From: a virus
Lineage: Duplodnaviria; Heunggongvirae; Uroviricota; Caudoviricetes
DNA: 12,086 bases
Reading direction: 5' to 3' (one strand)
Virus record (IMG/VR): IMGVR_UViG_3300029517_000086
The notes below the pieces were generated by a model. It saw only the letters and a list, made by a program, of their open reading frames with translations. It had not been told where the DNA came from and searched no databases. Both the position numbers and the translations under genes were made by a program. Shown one piece after another: positions 1 through 12,086 of the stretch. Within the stretch, counting starts at the first letter, position 1. The number at the start of each line of letters is the position of its first letter.

Positions 1-347
1 ATCTCGACCTTCCCTTCCGGGATAACCGGTCCCCACTCCACCAGCATTCTTTTCACCTGACTGTCGTCTTCCCACACACCCGCGTGGGTCAGGGCGTCAA
101 ACAGCGCCTTGTTATAGTTGTCCAGATCGCGGATCCGGTTATCCGGTGGAAACAACACGATCTCCACTGCAGCAGGTGCCGACGTTGGTTTCGGCAGACG
201 ACGTAACTGCTCAACTATTGCTGCGCACGCCGCGCTCTGGAATTTTCGCCCCGCCGTGCTTATCAGGCTCTTACCAGCAAACGCCCCTTTGTTGGGGTGT
301 CGCCAGTACGTGTTCACGCTGGGCGGAAAAGGCAGAATAAGCTTCAT
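1..347 (-). CDS. rusA: Crossover junction endodeoxyribonuclease RusA (Holliday junction resolvase), C-terminus runs off window start
   Basis: Manual minus-strand translation from ATG at 347..345 gives MKLILPFPPSVNTYWRHPNKG...DLDNYNKALFDALTHAGVWEDDSQV..., with no stop down to position 1. It matches conserved RusA blocks (LP-PPS-N-Y-R and DLDN-KA-FDALT-AG-W-DD-QV). Its ATG overlaps the upstream stop (ATGA). Absent from the ORF track, presumably because it is truncated. Confidence 0.85.
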   Translation of the reverse strand, partial: MKLILPFPPSVNTYWRHPNKGAFAGKSLISTAGRKFQSAACAAIVEQLRRLPKPTSAPAAVEIVLFPPDNRIRDLDNYNKALFDALTHAGVWEDDSQVKRMLVEWGPVIPEGKVE

Positions 348-670
348 ACTTTCAGGCCCCTCTCATGTAACCAGTGGGCTGCACGCAGCCTGGCGTTTTC
401 CTCACCGGCAAGCAGTGAGCGGATAATCCCGACCGCCTCGCTGTCGTCGTCCTTCACCGCGGTATGAAGCGTTATCCCCCGGGCCACGCCACGCTTTATC
501 GTGATGACGCCTTTTTTCTCCAGAGCACGAAGATGCTCCACCGCTGCATTCACCGAACGGTATCCCAGCATGGTTGCCACCTCCTGATTGGTTGGTGGGA
601 AGCCACGTTCTTTCTGATAAGAAATCAGCATATCCAGCACCTGCTGCTGGCATTGAGTTAACGTCGTCAT
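344..670 (-). CDS. LexA N-terminal DNA-binding-domain homolog (winged HTH only, no S24 peptidase domain)
   Basis: MTTLTQCQQQVLDMLISYQKERGFPPTNQEVATMLGYRSVNAAVEHLRALEKKGVITIKRGVARGITL aligns by eye with E. coli LexA residues 1-70 ([68 protein letters not shown]). Protein is about 108 aa. Start chosen at ATG 670..668, which overlaps the upstream TAA (TAATG coupling), rather than the longer ORF-track start at 703. Confidence 0.75.
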   Translation of the reverse strand: MTTLTQCQQQVLDMLISYQKERGFPPTNQEVATMLGYRSVNAAVEHLRALEKKGVITIKRGVARGITLHTAVKDDDSEAVGIIRSLLAGEENARLRAAHWLHERGLKV

Positions 671-1164
671 TAAGCCCCCACGTAATTCCCTGACAGATAC
701 CACTCTTCACCCGATGCAGCGCGCTTGCTGCTTTTCCGTAAGCACCGCTCACGACGCGCCAGAAAATTGTTTCGTTCTGGCTGGGAGTGGCTTTCACGGA
801 ATGCCGCCATCCACACGGTTGCAGCACGACGGTATAAGCCCCTGGACTCCAGTTCTTCCGCCTGGCGGGTCAGGCACAAAATCACCCGGGGATCGTTAGT
901 GCCGACATAGAAATTACGCACAGGTCTGGTTTCACGAACTGGTTGTGGTTTCGGCTCCTGCGCTCTCTCAGTCAGGCGCGGGAAATGTCTGCGTGTATCT
1001 CCTTCACAACGGTGAGCCACACGTCCACTCTGACGTAACTTGCTTGCTGACTGCAGAACGCGCTGCCGTGAGTAACCAGCAAAAGCATCCGCAATGTCTC
1101 CGGAAGTACACCCCGGATGGGCTTCAATGAATTTCTGAACGTCATTCAAAAGACTCATGATCAC
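670..1164 (-). CDS. Hypothetical protein with PerC-like C-terminal region (putative transcriptional activator)
   Basis: C-terminal segment AEELESRGLYRRAATVWMAAF resembles the conserved PerC/Pch motif, recalled from memory and not searched. GTG start at 1164..1162 overlaps the replication-gene stop (GTGA); an alternative ATG lies at 1158..1156. Confidence 0.6.
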   Translation of the reverse strand: MIMSLLNDVQKFIEAHPGCTSGDIADAFAGYSRQRVLQSASKLRQSGRVAHRCEGDTRRHFPRLTERAQEPKPQPVRETRPVRNFYVGTNDPRVILCLTRQAEELESRGLYRRAATVWMAAFRESHSQPERNNFLARRERCLRKSSKRAASGEEWYLSGNYVGA

Positions 1165-2102
1165 CCCCTGAATCCTGCCGGGATCTGGCTGTAGTCCACA
1201 TTGTCGTAACTGGATTTGAAGTACGGGTCTTCGCGTTTTTCGGTGTACGTGCTTACGGACGGCGATAAGCGCAGGGAAAGCTCATCCCATTTTTCCCGCA
1301 GCTTCGACGGGCTGAGCACGTTACGGCACCAGAACGGATCGCGGCTGACGCGGCTGTACATCTCGCAGATTTGTTTGTGAGTACGACCATCCTGCACACA
1401 CATCAGGCGAATTTCGTTTGCCCAGGCTGTCCAGTTCGGTTCTTTGGGACGAACCACCTCGCCGTCACATTCGGCAGCCTGCTCGTACAGGGCGATGATT
1501 TTTTTCCAGAGCCACTGTGCGCAGGTCAAATCATCCTGCGTCCCCCACTGGCGCTTTTTAGGGCTGAATACAACCGCATCAGGATGGCGAGTTAAAAAAT
1601 CCTGTTCAGCCGTCTGCGTGTCCGGTTGCGAAGCGTCCGGACGAGAAGTTTTTTTATCTGACGGATCATGTTTTGATTTTACTGACGGATCCCCGCCAGA
1701 TTCTGACGGGTGAAAACCCGCTTTTTTGCCAGATTTCGACGCATCAAATTTTGACGGGTCAGATTTTGATGCGTCAGATTTTGACGGGTCAGAATCTGAC
1801 AGTTGAGAAAAAGCCGCAGCCTGAAGCTTCGCAACGTTAAGCTGATAAACATTCGACGCATTGCGGTTACCCTGGCGACGCGCCTTACGCGTTAACCAGC
1901 CTTCTGCTTCCAGCCGTGCGATAGCCGTTCTGACGGTACTCATCCCCGCGCCAATCTGGCGGGCAATGGTTTCAATTGATGGCCAGCACACACCTTCGTC
2001 ATTACTGAAATCAGCCAGGCGTGCCATAATTGCCACGCTGGATAATTTCATGCCTGACGCTGCGCAACCATCCCATACATAGCCGGTTAATTTAGTGCTC
2101 AT
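1161..2102 (-). CDS. Phage replication initiation protein: N-terminal winged HTH, low-complexity linker, DnaT-like C-terminal domain
   Basis: N-terminus (SIETIARQIGAGMSTVRTAIARLEAEGWL) is HTH-like. C-terminus ends ...DYSQIPAGFRG, which parallels the E. coli DnaT C-terminus ...SEPDSQIPPGFRG. The Ser/Asp/Lys-rich linker (SDSDPSKSDASKSDPSKFDASKSG) is encoded by a DNA iteron array. RBS AGG lies upstream of ATG at 2102..2100. Confidence 0.85.
   Translation of the reverse strand: MSTKLTGYVWDGCAASGMKLSSVAIMARLADFSNDEGVCWPSIETIARQIGAGMSTVRTAIARLEAEGWLTRKARRQGNRNASNVYQLNVAKLQAAAFSQLSDSDPSKSDASKSDPSKFDASKSGKKAGFHPSESGGDPSVKSKHDPSDKKTSRPDASQPDTQTAEQDFLTRHPDAVVFSPKKRQWGTQDDLTCAQWLWKKIIALYEQAAECDGEVVRPKEPNWTAWANEIRLMCVQDGRTHKQICEMYSRVSRDPFWCRNVLSPSKLREKWDELSLRLSPSVSTYTEKREDPYFKSSYDNVDYSQIPAGFRG
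1655..1805. repeat. Iteron-like direct repeat array inside the replication initiator gene (putative phage origin)
   Basis: Six roughly 15-bp units sharing a TGACGG-type core: 1698-1712 agattctgacgggtg, 1731-1745 agatttcgacgcatc, 1746-1760 aaattttgacgggtc, 1761-1775 agattttgatgcgtc, 1776-1790 agattttgacgggtc, 1791-1805 agaatctgacagttg. Further ctgacggatc copies at 1655-1667 and 1677-1692, with an adjacent T-rich stretch at 1645-1658. Confidence 0.6.
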
Positions 2103-2111
2103 GACCGACCT

Positions 2112-2450
2112 CTATTTCCCTGAATTTACGACGAAACTTTTCGAGCGGACTGAAGCATTCATGCTCATAGCCTTCGCGGAGGTAGATAACCCGTTGTGTT
2201 TCCGGCTCCCAACGAATGACTCTGACGGGTACTCCGTAGTGATCTTTGAACCAGCGGTTAACTTGTCGCAAAGGACTGTCTCCTTTTGCCGGTTAAAATC
2301 ACCCACAGCCCACTCTGCAAAGCTGTGGGTTACAATTACCCTGCCACCTGGTACATTTACTGCATAGCAATACTCCACCTTCGCTTTTCCACCCGGTACA
2401 GGAAGCGCAATCAGTTGCGAGCGACGGTAGTGTGTTGTTAAACTATTCAT
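2112..2450 (-). CDS. Hypothetical protein (112 aa), between the CII-like gene and the replication gene
   Basis: ATG at 2450..2448 overlaps the TGA of the upstream CII-like gene (ATGA coupling) and its stop lies 9 nt before the replication-gene ATG. Position and length are consistent with the e14 ymfM slot, as recalled. No recognisable motif. Confidence 0.55.
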
Positions 2451-2998
2451 GCGTTAGTTTCTCCACAGTCACGACACGCCACGGCGCCCGGAGCTGCACA
2501 CTCGCGGGCGTCATTACTTTCTGAAATGCAAAAAATTTTGTAGACCAGTGCTGCATGCTCCTGCAGCTTCGAAATTGAGAGGTACAGCTCGTCGTTAATT
2601 GCTGTCTTCTCATGCGGTTCCACTACACCGTCTTCAATTGCTGAACGAATCTGTTTTGAATAACTGCCGATCTGTTCAATGACCTCCAGCAGGCGTTGGT
2701 TGATATCGGCGTTGTCCACATCCTCGACATCAGGAAGAGACACAAAGACGCCATTTGCAGACTGCGCCACAGCGTCAGCAATGAAGTGAGTTCCACCAGC
2801 ACGTTGCAAAATCATTGCCCATCCCAGCGGGAAAATCTGATCGCCATCGGCACGAAGGCGGTTAAATAATGCGTTCTCTGTTACATCCAGCCAGTCAGCA
2901 GCTTCAGCGTAACCCCCCGGCAACGCTGCGATAGTTTTTCTGACAGCTTTCACGTACCACTCAGGCTGTTTTTCTACTTTCCAGTGATGCTTACCCAC
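2447..2998 (-). CDS. CII-like phage regulatory protein (YmfL/CP76-type, tentative), 183 aa
   Basis: Second gene of the rightward early operon, directly after the cro-like gene and overlapping its end by 8 nt. GTG start at 2998..2996 is preceded by AGGAGG. The family assignment comes from position and size only. Confidence 0.6.
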
Positions 2999-3251
2999 GG
3001 TTCACCTCCTGTTCCTGTGGTTTAAACCCATTCTGGTTTTGGCTAGATTGAAAACGTGCCGGATAAAGAATCTGCATTTCGCTGACTTCACCCTTAAAAA
3101 AATTGGCTAAACGTTCTGCAAGCTCGATAGATGGAATCTGCTCCAGCCTCTCAATACGACTCAACGTCGCTGGATTGACTTGAACACCCGCAGCAACATG
3201 CTGCAAAGTGAAACCATGCGCCTTACGCACATTTCGTAATAGTGATTGCAT
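2991..3251 (-). CDS. Cro-like HTH (XRE family) transcriptional regulator
   Basis: 86 aa with an HTH core (FTLQHVAAGVQVNPATLSRIE). Divergent from the CI-type repressor across an operator-rich region. GGAGG sits 4 nt upstream of ATG at 3251..3249. Confidence 0.8.
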   Translation of the reverse strand: MQSLLRNVRKAHGFTLQHVAAGVQVNPATLSRIERLEQIPSIELAERLANFFKGEVSEMQILYPARFQSSQNQNGFKPQEQEVNRG

Positions 3252-3348: not shown

Positions 3349-4041
3349 ATGAACATAGGAAACCGAGTCAGACAACTTCGCCAAGCGAAGAACATGAAAA
3401 TCGCCGATCTCGCTGAAGCAATAGGAGTAGATGCGGCGAACATCTCGCGCTTAGAAACGGGTAAGCAAAAACAATTTACCGAACAAACACTGAGTAATAT
3501 TGCCAAGAGCTTAGGTGTTGATATTGCTGATCTCTTTACCTCTGCCCACAAAAGTAATACTGTATATAAAAACAGTAATAATGAGGATGTTGCGCAGGTG
3601 AAGGATGTGTTCCGTATTGAAATGCTGGATATCAGTGCCAGTGCGGGAAATGGCCTTATCCAAGGCGGTGATGTCATTGATGTGATTCATGCCATCGAAT
3701 ACAGAACTGATAATGCTGTATCAATGTTCGGCGGACGACCAGCCAATCACATCAAAGTTATCAACGTTCGTGGGGACAGTATGTGTCCAACCATTGAGCC
3801 AGGAGATCTCATCTTCGTTGATGTCAGCATCAATCAGTTTGATGGTGATGGTATATATGTCTTTGGTTTTGATGACAAAATATACGTTAAAAGACTTCAA
3901 ATGATTCCTGACAAACTGCTGGTGATTTCTGATAACCAGATTTACCGTGAATGGGGAATTACTAGCGAAAACGAACACCGATTCATGGTCTTTGGAAAGG
4001 TCTTAATCAGTCAGTCGCAAACCCTTAAGAGACATAATTAA
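3349..4041 (+). CDS. CI-type prophage repressor: N-terminal XRE-family HTH plus C-terminal S24 (LexA-like) peptidase domain
   Basis: HTH region (IADLAEAIGVDAANISRLETGK). C-terminal domain with a GDSM serine motif (RGDSMCPTIEPGDLIFVD) and a downstream lysine (IYVKRL), typical of autocleaving repressors. Same strand as int, as for lambda cI. Confidence 0.9.
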   Translation: MNIGNRVRQLRQAKNMKIADLAEAIGVDAANISRLETGKQKQFTEQTLSNIAKSLGVDIADLFTSAHKSNTVYKNSNNEDVAQVKDVFRIEMLDISASAGNGLIQGGDVIDVIHAIEYRTDNAVSMFGGRPANHIKVINVRGDSMCPTIEPGDLIFVDVSINQFDGDGIYVFGFDDKIYVKRLQMIPDKLLVISDNQIYREWGITSENEHRFMVFGKVLISQSQTLKRHN

Positions 4042-5860: not shown

Positions 5861-6106
5861 ATGCTTCAAATGCTGACACTTGAGGAATGGGCTGCGGAAA
5901 AATTTAGGAGTAACCCTCCAAGTGTGTCCACATTGCGTCGTTATGCTAAGCAGAATTTATTTTGTCCACCGGCAATGAAACAAGGTCGACTATGGCGAGT
6001 ACGTGAGGACGCAGAGTTAGTTGGGGAATTAGTTACTCCTGTCATTAAGAAAAGTGATTCTATTATTCTACAAAGGATTTTAAGTAATGGCAGCCAGACC
6101 ACGTAA
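5861..6106 (+). CDS. xis: Excisionase (lambda Xis family)
   Basis: MLQMLTLEEWAAEKF...STLRRYAKQNLFCPPAMKQGRLW parallels lambda Xis MYLTLQEWNARQRRPRSLETVRRWVRECRIFPPPVKDGREY. Sits immediately upstream of int and overlaps it by 20 nt. Confidence 0.85.
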   Translation: MLQMLTLEEWAAEKFRSNPPSVSTLRRYAKQNLFCPPAMKQGRLWRVREDAELVGELVTPVIKKSDSIILQRILSNGSQTT

Positions 6107-7214
6107 GAATAATGTTTCAGTCCCGAACTTGTATCCGCTCTATAGCAGAAAAGTAAATAAAGTTTATTGGCGATATAAGCATCCAGTGACCGGGAAGTTT
6201 CATTCTTTGGGCACAAACGAAGCTGAAGCCATTGCTATTGCCACTGAGGCCAATACACGCCTAGCTGAGCAAAGAACCCGGCAGATTCTAGCTATCAGTG
6301 ACAGGATCGCAACCAGCAAAGGAAAAGCAATCACAACGTCAACCTGGTTAGATCGCTATCAAGCAATCCAGGAAGACAGACTGAAAAGTGGCGATATAAA
6401 GCTCAACACCTATAAACAGAAAGCCAAACCAGTATCCTTGCTCAGGGAACGAGCAGGACTGAAGTTGATATCAGCCGTTGATGTCAGAGATATAGCACAA
6501 TTACTTGATGAGTATATCTCTGCTGGACAGCCTAGAATGGCCCAGGTCGTAAGGTCTGTATTGATCGATGTGTTTAAGGAAGCACAGCATTACGGCGAAG
6601 TTCCACCAGGGTATAACCCTGCTCTTGCAACGAAGCAACCCAGAAGGAAAATTAGCCGTCAACGCCTCAGCCTAGAAGAATGGAAAAAAATATTCGATAT
6701 CGCAGACGCCGCTCATCGTTATATGGGAAATGCCATGCTCCTAGCTTTGGTCACTGGGCAGCGTTTAGGAGATATATCCAAAATGAAATTTAGTGATATT
6801 TGGGAGGATCATCTTCACGTCATTCAGGAAAAGACCGGGAGCAAAATCGCTATCCCTCTTTCTTTACGTTTGAATGCTATCAACTGGTGTTTACGTGATG
6901 TAGTAGCTCGCTGCCGTGACTACGCAGTCAGCCCATACTTAGTGCATTTTTTCCGTACTACATCACAGGCTGAACGTGGCGCACAGGTAAAAGCTAATAC
7001 ACTAACGATGAACTTTAGCAAGGCACGTGATCTGGCAGAAATTGATTGGGGTACTGGAACTCCTGCAACTTTTCATGAACAAAGATCTTTATCTGAACGT
7101 CTTTACAAGGAACAAGGGGTTGATACCAGAAAGTTACTGGGCCATAAAACCCAGCAGCAAACCGATCGTTACCATGATGACCGAGGCAAAGGATGGAGCA
7201 AAGTAGCGTTGTGA
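6087..7214 (+). CDS. int: Tyrosine site-specific integrase (lambda Int family)
   Basis: 375 aa. N-terminal arm-binding region (PNLYPLY...YWRYKHPVTGKFHSLG) parallels lambda Int (PNLYIRNNGYYCYRDPRTGKEFGLG). Catalytic-domain blocks LVTGQRLGDISKMKFSDI, HEQRSLSERLY and LLGHKTQQQTDRYHDDRG match the lambda Int R...HxxR...Y signature. Confidence 0.95.
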   Translation: MAARPRKNNVSVPNLYPLYSRKVNKVYWRYKHPVTGKFHSLGTNEAEAIAIATEANTRLAEQRTRQILAISDRIATSKGKAITTSTWLDRYQAIQEDRLKSGDIKLNTYKQKAKPVSLLRERAGLKLISAVDVRDIAQLLDEYISAGQPRMAQVVRSVLIDVFKEAQHYGEVPPGYNPALATKQPRRKISRQRLSLEEWKKIFDIADAAHRYMGNAMLLALVTGQRLGDISKMKFSDIWEDHLHVIQEKTGSKIAIPLSLRLNAINWCLRDVVARCRDYAVSPYLVHFFRTTSQAERGAQVKANTLTMNFSKARDLAEIDWGTGTPATFHEQRSLSERLYKEQGVDTRKLLGHKTQQQTDRYHDDRGKGWSKVAL

Positions 7215-7302: not shown

Positions 7303-7785
7303 TTGATAAAAAATATGATAATCAATCAACTCAAAATCACGTATAACGACGATATTTTATCTGCACTTTCAGGAAAAGTGTTTCATGTTACTACTGCAGC
7401 TAATATGCTCCTTATAAAACAATCTGGAGCTTTGGTTCCAAATTCGGAATTATTGCAATTTTCAAGATTTGGAAATACATCTAATGGTTTTTTTAGGCAG
7501 CGCAATTGCGTGTCTTTTTTCGACTATAGATGCTATGGGACTAGATTCTGGAAAGAGCATGCTTATAAATGTTTTCCAACTCAGATCCTTAAACGCGAAC
7601 AAGGTGATAAGATTTCAATACTGTTTCTTCACGAAAGCAAGTTCGAGAAACTGATTCCATGGACTTCTTGGAAAGAAGAAAAAGCATGGGGCGAGAGGGT
7701 TGTCCCGTATGTTGAGACTGGATATAAAGGCATTGTTTCCCTAAGCGATATTACCGAAGAATTAGTTGTTGAGTTTGACTGCTAG
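7303..7785 (+). CDS. Hypothetical protein (156-160 aa), AT-rich cargo gene between int and the host junction
   Basis: Open frame of protein-like composition, no recognisable motif. Start is uncertain (TTG at 7303 or ATG at 7315), both with weak RBS. AT-rich by eye compared with the phage core. Confidence 0.5.
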   Translation: MIKNMIINQLKITYNDDILSALSGKVFHVTTAANMLLIKQSGALVPNSELLQFSRFGNTSNGFFRQRNCVSFFDYRCYGTRFWKEHAYKCFPTQILKREQGDKISILFLHESKFEKLIPWTSWKEEKAWGERVVPYVETGYKGIVSLSDITEELVVEFDC

Positions 7786-8211: not shown

Positions 8212-11200
8212 TCAGAGGTGTTCGAACCTAGCCACCACAGCACCTTCAATTTCTAGCACTTGATTCCAGGTCGTGGTCACCGAGCCAGTCAGAGGATCTT
8301 GACTGTCTGTCTGCCATGAGGAGTTGAAAAGCAGGCCGTCAGGATCGCTCTGCAGGTGAAGGTTGCCGAAGATACTGTTCCGGACGAGCAGGGAATAACA
8401 TCTCTCAGAAGCAAACTCCTGATAGATTCCACAGCCGTTGATTCTGATTGGCATCAGGCCTCCCGGACGCGACGACCTGTCCAGCGTGATCCCCAGTTCC
8501 GCATGCCTGTCCGCGTGGTAAATCAGTTCACGCAGGTCACTCCCTAGACGGGTGCCGAAAAATATAAGCGTAGAGTCGTCATTATCGACGGTCATCTCCC
8601 GTAAATGCTTCAGCAGTCCCTTCACGTCGCGAACGATTTCGGTCCGGAGAGGCTGCAACTGACTCAGGCCTCGGTAAACATCACGAAGCAGAGAATATTT
8701 GACGTCAGAAAGCGATGTCAGATCACCGTAGACATTGCTGTTGATCCCCCGAGCAATGATATTTTTAGGCATGGTTCCTCGAACCGACCTAGCTGTCCAT
8801 GGTATCTCCCCGTTCTCAGAGTTGCTGTAAGAAAAACGGGAAAGCAGTGCATCCTGAGCAAGCATTTCGGGCAGTTCGTGGGTCAGAGTCAGATCGGTTT
8901 TTTTCAGCCGTTCTGTATCAATCTCTGCGTTAAGAAGTTCATCATGCAGGCACTGGCTGAAAGCCAGAATATAGGCATCGAGAGTTTTATTGAAAGAAAT
9001 AATTTTCGCTTTAAAAACCATCTCAGACATTAAATATCCGTCTGGGGAACTGTCTTCACGACGTTTCATCCCATGAAGCTGATTTATAATTTGTTCCTTT
9101 CTGGAATACGTGAAGAGATTGTCATTCAGAGCATCCTGCACGCGTCGGCTGACAGGCTGCGGCCCAGCGGAAAGATAAAAAGCAATATCAGCGTAACTGC
9201 CGTACAGATTCCTTACATCTTCATAGGTTCCCATATAAATGCGACCGGTTATAGTTTCGGTTTCATTAAAGGCTGAAAAGGTTTTTATGAGGCCGGACAG
9301 CGCTTCGTACCAGCCGTTCTCATGACGATTGTTCCGGTATTCCAGCCTGATGATGCTGTCAATAATATCAGTGGCTGACTTAAATGAAGGTGTCATGCGA
9401 TCGTGTGCACCAGTAGGATAGACAAGCTCTGAATTCAGGAGTCGCTTAACAACGCTTTTAAGGGGGACATTCTTTTTCTGCCTGATATGAGAAAGAATAT
9501 AGCTTGCAGTCAACAAACGCACGTCAGCTAGGGCGTTATAAAATACCGTGTTCAGCGTCTTATTTTCTGAATATTCATTACCTCGCAGTACAGCCTGCCA
9601 GTCATGTCCTTCAGAAGTCTGCGTTAATAAGGCTGGTGTGATGAAAAAACTGTGCCAGCGGTACTGGTCAAAATGCTCTTCAAAGTTATTCCGGCCAAAC
9701 CAGAGCAACAGCATATCTGAGCTGTGTTCTGAGGCGAAACGGTCATCTTTCATGACTGCTGTTATGACTGTCTGAGCAGTGTAGAAAAGATGAGACAGCA
9801 GGCAAGCCGGGTCATTATCAGACCGTTCCCCGTTACGGTTATGAATACGTCGCCACATGTACCAGCTTTCCCATTCACCGATAAAATCTTTAACAAGCTC
9901 CCGGTGACGCAGCTCCTGGCCAACCGTCAGATTTTCTCCATACCCCGTTTTCCAGTCTATCAGCGCATGCCAGACGTGGAAAAGAGACTGAATATATTGC
10001 TGAAAATCGCCCAGCTGGCAGCTGTCGGCATCACGATACACCGAGAATGGGATGGTTAATACATTACGAAAATATTCCCCTGTGGTTTCCAAAGATTTTA
10101 CAGTAACGTGACTGAATGAGTAAAAGTCTCTATGGAATGACTGGCTGAATGTCACCATAAATCCTGTATCACTACATTCATCAATATAGTTACCGTCAGC
10201 ATACCGGAAACTTTTTTTCAACGTTGTGTAGGTGTCCACCAGCCTGTCTGTTGCACTGATGAAGGAACTAATATTTCTGTCTTCCAGAGCATCGTAGGCC
10301 TCGCCATAAAAATCACGGGTAATGTAGCGGTATTCTTTCCAGTTTTTTTTAAAACCTCTGATAAAGCATCGCCTGAACAAAAACGGCCACCAACAGGGAA
10401 AAATCACATCCGTAGATGCGAGCAGAGTTATTGTATCCTGCTTACGACCCAAGGATGGGAGTAAAATTATTTTTCCTACGCTGTTATTAACTGGTCGCAG
10501 AAATCGTAACAGAAAATTAAATAACCGCATCCGGACATCGGTAATATCTTTCCCCTCACCTAAATGATGAGGTAACAAATTCATATTCTCTTCACCTGAA
10601 ACATACCAGCGGAGGACCTCAATCCCATTGATGTAATTTTTATCGATATAATTCCCTGGGTGCTGAAGCCATGAGTTTATCCGCGAATGAAGAATGAAAT
10701 TTTCGACAATCTCTGACTGAAAATATTTTAACATAAGGCGGTCGCGTTTTTTATCGTCAAGAATATTCAGGCTTGAAATAAAAAACCATATAGATAGCAC
10801 GATGTTGAACAGCATCCAGATTAAGGCTGTAATGGCAAAAGCGGTCGTCCGGTATTTATCGCCGGCAGATGAAAATAGCCCACCAATCACTATAAATGCA
10901 GCCAGTGACAGCCCGCTGAGCCCGGCAAACATGTAACCCGAATGCAACTGATAGGCAGACTGAATATGTATGCGGGACGATTTTTTCTGAAAAAGCACGC
11001 TGATAAGGCCCACAACCAGCGGAAAAACGATCCCGATAATCGTCAGCTGAGCGCCCAGCAGGTTTGACATCCATGCCGGCAGCTCCGTAACACCTTTCAG
11101 ATAGGAAGCGGCAAAAGAATGAAATTCTGGACGAAAATATTCCGCAACAATGACTGCACCTACTGCCGTTGCCCAGAGCAACAACATGGCCTTCAGATAG

Positions 11201-11334
11201 TGCGTGGAGCAGTAAACCTGCGCTCTCTCAAGCAGACTCCAGCGATGTTTTTTATACACCGAATTACCTTTAAGGTTCCGTTTGAGATCGGCTCTGACTT
11301 TAGCTGAAAGGCGTGTAAAGAATATGCCAGACAT
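8212..11334 (-). CDS. Large membrane-anchored protein of unknown function (1040 aa): four predicted N-terminal TM helices plus a roughly 850-aa soluble domain
   Basis: Single uninterrupted 3.1-kb ORF. ATG at 11334..11332 with AGGAG 4 nt upstream. Hydrophobic helices at about residues 48-66, 92-115, 134-155 and 164-188. No nucleotide-binding, nuclease or other motif recognised by eye. Sits in the int-to-att cargo slot. Confidence 0.85.
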   Translation of the reverse strand: MSGIFFTRLSAKVRADLKRNLKGNSVYKKHRWSLLERAQVYCSTHYLKAMLLLWATAVGAVIVAEYFRPEFHSFAASYLKGVTELPAWMSNLLGAQLTIIGIVFPLVVGLISVLFQKKSSRIHIQSAYQLHSGYMFAGLSGLSLAAFIVIGGLFSSAGDKYRTTAFAITALIWMLFNIVLSIWFFISSLNILDDKKRDRLMLKYFQSEIVENFILHSRINSWLQHPGNYIDKNYINGIEVLRWYVSGEENMNLLPHHLGEGKDITDVRMRLFNFLLRFLRPVNNSVGKIILLPSLGRKQDTITLLASTDVIFPCWWPFLFRRCFIRGFKKNWKEYRYITRDFYGEAYDALEDRNISSFISATDRLVDTYTTLKKSFRYADGNYIDECSDTGFMVTFSQSFHRDFYSFSHVTVKSLETTGEYFRNVLTIPFSVYRDADSCQLGDFQQYIQSLFHVWHALIDWKTGYGENLTVGQELRHRELVKDFIGEWESWYMWRRIHNRNGERSDNDPACLLSHLFYTAQTVITAVMKDDRFASEHSSDMLLLWFGRNNFEEHFDQYRWHSFFITPALLTQTSEGHDWQAVLRGNEYSENKTLNTVFYNALADVRLLTASYILSHIRQKKNVPLKSVVKRLLNSELVYPTGAHDRMTPSFKSATDIIDSIIRLEYRNNRHENGWYEALSGLIKTFSAFNETETITGRIYMGTYEDVRNLYGSYADIAFYLSAGPQPVSRRVQDALNDNLFTYSRKEQIINQLHGMKRREDSSPDGYLMSEMVFKAKIISFNKTLDAYILAFSQCLHDELLNAEIDTERLKKTDLTLTHELPEMLAQDALLSRFSYSNSENGEIPWTARSVRGTMPKNIIARGINSNVYGDLTSLSDVKYSLLRDVYRGLSQLQPLRTEIVRDVKGLLKHLREMTVDNDDSTLIFFGTRLGSDLRELIYHADRHAELGITLDRSSRPGGLMPIRINGCGIYQEFASERCYSLLVRNSIFGNLHLQSDPDGLLFNSSWQTDSQDPLTGSVTTTWNQVLEIEGAVVARFEHL

Positions 11335-11792: not shown

Positions 11793-12086
11793 TTACATGT
11801 TTTCGATGATTGCGTCACCAAACTCTGAACATTTCAGCAGCTTAGCGCCGTCCATCAGACGTTCGAAGTCATAGGTTACGGTCTTGGCGTTGATCGCGCC
11901 TTCCATACCTTTAACAATTAAGTCAGCCGCTTCAGTCCAACCCATGTGGCGTAACATCATCTCAGCGGAGAGAATAATAGAGCCAGGGTTTACTTTGTCC
12001 TGACCGGCGTATTTCGGCGCAGTACCGTGGGTGGCTTCAAACAGGGCGCATTCGTCACCGATGTTTGCACCAGGGGCGATACCGAT
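11793..12086 (-). CDS. icd: Isocitrate dehydrogenase (NADP), 3' portion (C-terminal 97 codons plus stop)
   Basis: Minus-strand translation gives ...[90 protein letters not shown], the E. coli Icd C-terminus as recalled. The gene continues beyond the window end. Confidence 0.95.

Follow-up and report, generated by a model that had tools for sequence, protein, structure and literature searches.

In the phages that offer the closest described comparisons, the repeats of the replication origin lie inside the gene of the initiator protein. The C-terminal domain of lambda O is the part assigned to binding lambda P, and O cannot do without its last five residues (PMC6022878). For gene 18 of phage P22 and gene 18 of phage L, each type of ori-binding protein has its own in-gene repeat family (PMC8022706; bioRxiv 10.1101/2020.10.05.325894), and in the lambdoid origins of Stx phages the number of iterons inside O varies (PMC7466680). 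DopC, a domesticated O-like protein, combines an HTH_36 domain with the C-terminal motif of DnaT (Brezellec et al. 2017, PMC5509034). Here we compare these systems with the gene rep, contained in a 12,086-bp stretch of viral DNA (IMG/VR record IMGVR_UViG_3300029517_000086; the window, i.e., the whole stretch that was analysed), which forms one end of a lambdoid prophage that resembles e14 and is integrated at icd. Judging from sequence comparison, the segment 1620–1811 within rep is likely to be the replication origin of this e14/SfII/SfIV-type lambdoid prophage, lying inside its own initiator gene—a reading that draws on the clustering of the repeats, their conservation at the DNA level, the exchange of modules among relatives, a control with lambda O, the homology of the C-terminal domain and the single replication gene annotated in the examined stretch of phage SfIV. 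The arrangement itself is textbook lambdoid; what differs is the initiator and the iteron family. In the open-access literature, the only literature covered, neither this origin type nor the GFRG tail of its initiator was found described, so that an earlier mention in subscription journals is possible.

The features on which the argument rests are as follows (positions in the window):

1161–2102, minus strand: rep, 313 amino acids, from the list of open reading frames (ORFs); belonging to the early-right operon
1812–2102, minus strand: winged-helix DNA-binding domain (HTH_36), presumed iteron reader, codons 1–97; from Pfam and Foldseek
1620–1811: codons 98–161, conserved cis-acting DNA element and proposed core of the origin; from synonymous codon entropy
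1695–1799: iteron array of six units (five tandem, 15-bp period), unit coordinates given on the plus strand
1695–1706, plus strand: iteron unit
1728–1739, plus strand: iteron unit
1743–1754, plus strand: iteron unit
1758–1769, plus strand: iteron unit
1773–1784, plus strand: iteron unit
1788–1799, plus strand: iteron unit
1665–1676: degenerate seventh unit, within the AT-richer segment
1645–1692: conserved segment, AT-richer and distal to the array, candidate unwinding region, with two GATC sites and an A7/T7 run
1263–1589, minus strand: helical C-terminal domain, a homologue of the P-binding C-terminal domain of lambda O, codons ~172–280
1164–1190, minus strand: tail motif SQIPAGFRG, common with DnaT, codons 305–313

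An earlier reading of the window, made from the letters alone (the sequence-only reading), had placed in rep at least six 15-bp repeats with a TGACGG core plus two outlying copies. The repeats are where it put them: a repeat search returned six copies in 1694–1809 (spacings 33, 15, 15, 15 and 15) and two more in 1653–1691, spaced 24 bp, and Tandem Repeats Finder reported 1730–1793 (period 15, 4.3 copies, 81% matches) with no second repeat array in the window. The 15-bp period stood but the core did not, the conserved part being TCARAATCTGAC and the "CGG" belonging mostly to a variable 3-bp spacer. Searching with the 12-mer GTCAGATTTTGA and allowing up to three mismatches gave 24 matches in the 12,086 bp against a chance expectation of ~14, with 11 of these 24 inside 1665–1800, where ~0.16 were expected; at up to two mismatches, eight of the ten matches in the window fell inside the same interval. 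In 1620–1811 there are seven 12-bp units, five of them tandem, each reading TCARAATCTGAC on the coding strand followed by three variable bases at a period of 15. On that (minus) strand the array runs TCA GAT TCT GAC, CCG TCA AAA TCT GAC, GCA TCA AAA TCT GAC, and continues with CCG TCA AAA TTT GAT, GCG TCG AAA TCT GGC and three copies starting CCG TCA.

Comparison of 385 units from 65 loci yielded the same core, TCARAATCTGAC on the coding strand or GTCAGATTYTGA on the plus strand, with a pooled consensus of TCA(A/G)AATCTGA(C/T) followed by three weakly conserved bases; in the position weight matrix, the bases conserved inside the unit are TCARAATCTGA. The variable part is a Pro/Ala/Thr codon that differs at its first and third bases, a pattern that marks a protein-binding site plus spacer and not a repeated peptide. 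Moreover, the unit shows partial dyad symmetry (TCA-N5-TGA); at several sites the consensus is matched on either strand, and the repeat search listed the inverted repeats I3, I5 and I9. Among relatives, the number of units per gene ranges from 2 to 10 with a median of 6, and the count differs by one or two between genes that are 99% identical elsewhere, as expected of a tandem array of sites. The array corresponds to rep codons 98–151 (the seven units to codons 102–146 of 313) and encodes SDSDPSKSDASKSDPSKFDASKS...DPSVKSKHDPSDKK, a stretch predicted to be disordered by AlphaFold2 (per-residue confidence, pLDDT, 30–38 over residues 102–166). As a side observation, overlapping ORFs in other frames run through this DNA at 1673–1840 (plus strand) and 1679–1861 (minus strand), and the unit keeps those frames open by construction. 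A terminator-like hairpin, CGGGTGAAAACCCG plus a T-run at 1707–1720 (plus strand, antisense to rep, in an array spacer), was set aside as not conserved in relatives; it is probably due to chance.

To assess conservation at the DNA level, 80 related loci were taken from one-genome-per-species contigs, and the 65 distinct genes with the N-terminal domain type of the window—from Escherichia, Shigella, Pantoea, Providencia, Proteus, Yersinia, Rahnella, Tatumella and other genera—were codon-aligned. Mean normalised synonymous codon entropy was 0.79 in codons 1–97, 0.23 in codons 98–161 and 0.71 in codons 162–200; the drop at codons 98–161 has a Mann–Whitney p of 4e-20, a value that overstates independence because the 65 sequences are kin, and all three regions have one common tree. 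A single codon was used by all sequences in 25 of the 59 columns of codons 98–161, as against one column of codons 1–97, where the protein is highly conserved and synonymous sites are close to saturation; the same-codon fraction was 0.85 in codons 98–161 versus 0.42. Frozen codons include TCA for Ser (64/64, 62/62 and 64/65), AAA for Lys (46/46, 47/47 and 60/60), GTA for Val (64/64), GAT for Asp (65/65) and TTT for Phe (62/62). The sequence-only reading had staked its case on the repeats being conserved as DNA in homologous rep genes, as the entropies of 0.23 and 0.79 across 65 genes show them to be. The nearly frozen synonymous sites coincide with the linker predicted to be disordered, the stretch for which it had proposed a dual constraint.

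The repeats also change together with the N-terminal domain. In phage mEp460_4F5, rep is identical to that of the window from about codon 151 on, the N-terminal domain is unrelated and the repeats differ (CCATCGGGTCAAAATG, 23-bp period); this mEp460-type module sits on a 99%-identical C-terminus, with the junction at about codon 151, just past the element. Eight N-terminal clusters occur on a common C-terminal domain family; seven have a clear repeat family of their own and one (locus L056) a weak array, and the repeat families of these sister types occupy the same relative position in the gene. Unrelated N-terminal domains are accompanied by ATCGGGTCAAAATG at L003 and L067, by GCAAACAAGAATGCGG at L018, by GCAGAATCGCGGAACC at L081 and by a further distinct repeat at L078. 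At L067, L018, L081 and L078 the period is 21–24 bp and the copies lie in frames 0, 1 and 2, which coding cannot explain. Furthermore, the module formed by the N-terminal domain and array of the window is itself joined to two C-terminal domain families, with junctions at codons 161–169. As a positive control, the same script applied to lambda gene O recovered its four annotated iterons (codons 117–143). This exchange of modules across loci indicates that array and reader domain move as one, the pattern known from lambda, phi80, P22 and L (PMC8022706). A scan of viral contigs with the C-terminal domain returned only genes 99–100% identical, and was used for copy number and module swaps, not for tail statistics. 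One candidate, H16, considered as an N-terminal domain on a different body, was rejected as a deletion pseudogene.

Rep is a modular initiator, comprising an N-terminal winged helix, a disordered linker, a lambda-O-type C-terminal domain and a DnaT-like tail. In the AlphaFold2 model, the winged helix spans residues 1–98, the linker 102–166 and the tail 283–313 are disordered, and a helical domain occupies residues 185–280 (pLDDT 84–98). The N-terminal helix-turn-helix seen by the sequence-only reading is confirmed by Pfam (HTH_36 at residues 23–70), and Rep matched PHROG 391, "replication initiation O-like", with E = 9e-136; an NCBIfam search of Rep gave nothing useful. Foldseek with the full-length model matched the winged helix alone, the top hits being MarR-type and other winged-helix proteins, and for this reason the C-terminal 149 residues were modelled separately; a sequence search of solved structures matched Rep to MarR-type winged helices only, and to no DnaT chain. 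The C-terminal domain aligned with that of lambda O in BLASTP (E = 4e-26) and belongs to a family of 2,670 cluster representatives.

The DnaT-like C-terminal domain that had been proposed earlier is therefore wrong—the domain is of the lambda O type, and only the last nine residues match DnaT. There, SQIPAGFRG in Rep is identical at eight of nine positions to SQIPPGFRG at the C-terminus of E. coli DnaT, so that the resemblance noticed in the ending QIPAGFRG was real and the domain deduced from it was not. The DnaT family PF17948 had no match in Rep at E ≤ 0.01, and among precomputed Pfam domains it was absent from 120 Rep homologues and present in all DnaT hits; neither profile nor fold comparison linked the globular C-terminal domain of Rep to DnaT. 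An hhalign comparison of Rep with DnaT aligned the last 34 columns only, at 38% probability and with a shallow DnaT alignment (members at least 71% identical) that leaves room for distant kinship of the globular domains, and DnaT residues 1–146, including the N-terminal oligomerisation domain and the acidic PriB-binding linker, gave no alignment with Rep.

Beyond the tandem array, conservation continues through one further unit and an AT-richer stretch, GATCCGTCAGTAAnTTCAAAACAAGATCCATCAGATAAAAA, containing two GATC sites (1664–1667 and 1688–1691, 24 bp apart). The GAT-CCR codons beneath these sites are kept in 65/65 and ~58/65 homologues. GC content is 0.43–0.45 in the segment 1645–1692 against 0.55–0.62 in its flanks, and a T-run at 1645–1655 accounts for the T-rich stretch previously reported beside the repeats, although the AT-richness is modest. 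The least stable 30-mer of the rep gene is 1652–1681, yet it ranks at just the 94th percentile of the window. The AT-rich part of ori-lambda, for comparison, has ~80% A+T. DnaA boxes were not enriched. In many relatives, a Dam-type or other adenine methylase is encoded right after rep, and methylation-dependent control of origin firing via the GATC sites is possible.

The tail is invariant in DnaT and nearly invariant among rep homologues, and an xGFRx tail is present on two C-terminal domain families, the lambda-O type and Phg_2220_C. In one homologue (P0302) the motif stands twice at the C-terminus (...YSIPKGFRGHDENEGYRGFGSPQKHVSDDVETEIPHGFRG), and a doubling of this kind is a typical trait of short docking peptides. 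Other members of the family end in WENTL-type, lambda-type (DWIYG...) or SSB-like (DDDFI) tails or in a longer extension, and the type of tail goes with the gene that follows. Within 2.5 kb of rep, a lambda-P homologue was found for 0 of 49 xGFRx-tailed genes and a DnaC-like gene for one, whereas a lambda-P homologue (Pfam PF06992) comes after each of the seven genes with WENTL-type tails; the association of tail type with a lambda-P neighbour has a Fisher p of 4e-9, uncorrected for shared ancestry. Two xGFRx genes stand beside a phage-encoded loader (L078 and L086), and the loader is DnaC-like in both. Moreover, in a Rac-like E. coli prophage an xGFRx-tailed rep lies immediately upstream of a DnaC-like ATPase, a pair that mirrors the E. 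coli chromosome, where dnaT is directly upstream of dnaC. In the window, no lambda-P gene follows rep, the next genes being PerC-like and LexA-DBD-like (carrying a LexA DNA-binding domain), and in the 26.5–39.8 kb stretch of SfIV that was examined, the early-right operon contains no loader or helicase and rep is the sole annotated replication gene.

Locus by locus, WNSPEAWENTL-type tails occur at L012, L014–L016, L056, L062 and L069, each followed by a lambda-P homologue, and L013 combines a lambda-like ...TDWIDGIENDL tail with a following P homologue, as L074 combines an SSB-like ...GGTDDDFI tail with a DnaC-like gene. A third initiator class has neither a GFRG nor a WENTL tail and carries instead a C-terminal extension of ~50 residues (...ERDxAYxRF...RxMSxFxxxxAWxxIWK/QQ...); it was found at L017, L019–L025, L039, L055, L057, L066, L071, L073, L076, L077, L079, L082 and L085, and no loader gene lies within 2.5 kb in this class.

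Taken together, the tail families, the loader neighbours, the Rac-like pair, the loader-less early-right operon of SfIV and the essential end of lambda O suggest that the tail is a portable motif that specifies the helicase-delivery partner, with xGFRx engaging a host factor also engaged by DnaT. It is plausible that Rep acts as a DnaT mimic towards DnaC–DnaB. In published work, the DnaT tail is a flexible 20-residue segment, and no DnaT–DnaC contact is documented (PMC5778457). A more specific proposal, which we offer tentatively and would place well short of probable, is that IPxGFRG may be a docking peptide common to DnaT and loader-less O-type initiators, which would make Rep an origin-specific DnaT mimic; WENTL- and lambda-type tails would then address lambda-P-like proteins, and xGFRx tails the host DnaC–DnaB or a phage DnaC-like protein. 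If this is true, the flexible tail of DnaT gains a function in the unresolved handover from preprimosome to DnaB–DnaC, and the notion of a phage initiator–loader gene pair as ancestor of dnaT-dnaC would be in keeping with it.

The sequence of events at such an origin can be outlined on this basis. The winged-helix domain of Rep (codons 1–97) probably binds each partly dyad-symmetric 12-bp unit (TCARAATCTGAC) as a dimer, and the resulting complex of Rep and array would destabilise the adjacent AT-richer segment at 1645–1692. The lambda-O-type C-terminal domain and the flexible tail of Rep would then bring in the helicase—which, since neither a lambda-P nor a DnaC-like gene lies beside rep, would have to be host DnaB with host DnaC. 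For this step, the SQIPAGFRG tail, of the type of the DnaT flexible tail, would be the best candidate docking element.

Several observations weigh against placing the origin at 1620–1811. All units of the window array share one frame (spacings 15, 21, 24 and 33), so that constraint on DNA and constraint on peptide are not separable from the window alone and the case rests on the relatives, which are kin; the AT-rich segment is weak (GC ~0.43); and 1620–1811 is strongly self-complementary on both strands (predicted folding versus shuffles, z −5.94 and −5.95), with 12 relatives folding at z −2.9 to −6.9 and the N-terminal-domain control mostly at ~0 (one locus at −3.1). Units that encode D-x-S-K-S pentapeptides in one frame, change in number by whole copies and fall in a linker predicted to be disordered would suit a reading as nothing more than a low-complexity protein linker (Ser/Asp/Lys/Pro), prone to slippage, whose DNA plays no part in cis. 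We find this scarcely credible, because across genera the synonymous sites hardly vary, in contrast to the saturated flanks; within the unit it is the amino-acid-changing middle codon that varies; and the repeats of sister initiators are mutually out of frame. Folding far above shuffles on both strands, in the window and in 12 relatives, means that structure in the RNA or in single-stranded DNA could contribute to the synonymous constraint, or even account for it, be it a hairpin in the mRNA that controls how rep is translated or degraded, or a hairpin on the unwound strand serving as a primosome assembly site of the PriA type. That the constraint is of this kind is very unlikely: equal z on both strands results by construction from dyad-symmetric repeated binding sites, no Rfam family matched, the terminator-like hairpin at 1707–1720 is not kept in relatives, and the change of repeat sequence with the N-terminal DNA-binding domain would be left unexplained. 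Cruciforms or single-strand hairpins may form at the origin region upon unwinding.

Plasmid iterons also act in copy control, and the units could accordingly be Rep-binding control sites only—serving early-right autorepression, titration or handcuffing—with the true origin elsewhere in the prophage, an option that the weak AT-rich stretch by the array and the lack of enrichment of DnaA boxes would accommodate. It is nevertheless quite unlikely, as position, polarity (array, then AT-richer DNA along transcription) and linkage to the N-terminal domain all match ori-lambda, conservation reaches past the units into the AT-richer GATC segment, and the window has no other repeat array. As for the step after origin recognition, the sequence-only reading had the C-terminus of Rep recruit the host PriA/PriB/DnaT restart primosome. 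A tail 8/9 identical to that of DnaT, the absence of a phage loader and an origin region able to form hairpins when single-stranded all speak for this, but a tail of the DnaT type suggests that Rep replaces DnaT rather than binds it. Furthermore, in recent preprimosome structures DnaT is reported to contact PriB through its acidic linker (Asp66/Asp70) and PriA through its globular C-terminal domain, in a study that does not discuss the tail (PMC13377028); these parts are not in Rep, whose globular domain is lambda-O-type, and xGFRx initiators with an adjacent phage loader have a DnaC-like one. Recruitment of the restart primosome is thus not supported, and we consider it rather unlikely.

Reading 1620–1811 as an in-gene origin has several implications. 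Lambda-type initiators are assembled from four interchangeable parts, namely the DNA reader, the origin, the effector domain and the tail. A cis-acting origin at codons 98–161 would explain the odd codon conservation there, warn against recoding or truncating these codons and supply, for these prophages, a replicon module ready for use and a determinant of incompatibility. Additionally, the tail shared with DnaT bears on the open question of how DnaT and loader-less phage initiators recruit DnaB–DnaC. The initiator type is very common, yet undescribed: rep was matched in whole or in part in 3,357 of 5,426 complete E. coli genomes and also in Klebsiella and Yersinia phages, and its existing annotation is just "helix-turn-helix protein" or "primosomal protein". 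The rep region is 98–99% identical to viable Shigella phages SfII and SfIV, which are serotype-converting, and to several E. coli phages. In E. coli K-12, the copy of rep is the truncated yfdO of CPS-53; yfdO (records H13 and H14) aligns solely with window positions 1100–1869, keeping the iteron array and the C-terminal domain and having lost most of the N-terminal DNA-binding domain, which would leave an orphan origin without its reader.

Around rep, the window contains the following genes:

344–703, minus strand: LexA-DBD-like, 119 amino acids, early-right operon, 3′ of the PerC-like gene
670–1164, minus strand: PerC-like (PerC-family activator), early-right operon, directly downstream of rep
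2112–2450, minus strand: small ORF, early-right operon
2447–2998, minus strand: CII/CP76-like, early-right operon
2991–3251, minus strand: cro-like, divergent early-right operon
3349–4041: CI-type S24 repressor
5861–6106: excisionase
6087–7214: integrase
11793–11960: icd 3′ fragment

The PerC-like and LexA-DBD-like pair downstream of rep is also present in SfIV. The 119-residue protein at 344–703 consists of a LexA DNA-binding domain alone, the peptidase part being absent, and an early prophage protein of this make-up could compete with LexA at SOS boxes. Between the integrase gene and the icd attachment site, low-GC DNA carries an ORF of 1040 codons (8212–11334, minus strand) with hydrophobic N-terminal segments, and a neighbouring ORF of 160 codons (7303–7785, plus strand); neither had a Pfam or PADLOC match. 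They are prophage cargo and candidate defence or moron genes, and occupy the place where e14 carries lit and mcrA.

Set beside ori-lambda, the locus shows the layout of gene O that had been suspected from the sequence, and it does so in the position of the array, the order of array and AT-richer DNA, and the linkage to the N-terminal domain. In both, dyad-containing direct repeats lie mid-gene in the linker-coding part (codons 117–145 of 299 in lambda, 98–151 of 313 in rep), the array comes first and AT-richer DNA next along transcription, the N-terminal domain and its iterons form one exchangeable module, and the C-terminal domains are homologous. However, the N-terminal domain of Rep is HTH_36 and that of lambda O is Phage_rep_O; the rep units number seven, measure 12 bp and recur at 15 bp, a multiple of three, whereas lambda has four of 18–19 bp at 20–24 bp; the AT-rich part of rep is far weaker; and rep has no P gene with it and ends in IPAGFRG, unlike the ...TDWIYGVDL of lambda O. 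P22 and L likewise have a repeat family specific to the initiator type inside its coding region, but they encode a DnaB-type helicase (gene 12), whereas neither a helicase nor a loader is encoded in those regions of the rep phage that were examined. The O genes of Stx phages share a variable number of in-gene iterons with rep, although theirs are lambda-type N-terminal domains and iterons paired with a P gene. DopC resembles Rep in joining an N-terminal domain of the HTH_36 family to a DnaT-like C-terminus; dopC, however, has no detected iterons and is paired with the P-like DopE, whereas rep has conserved iterons and no P-like gene. Finally, in E. coli DnaT, as in Rep, the motif closes a flexible tail after a helical domain, and the position of dnaT upstream of dnaC recurs in some xGFRx prophage initiators, which lie directly upstream of a DnaC-like gene.

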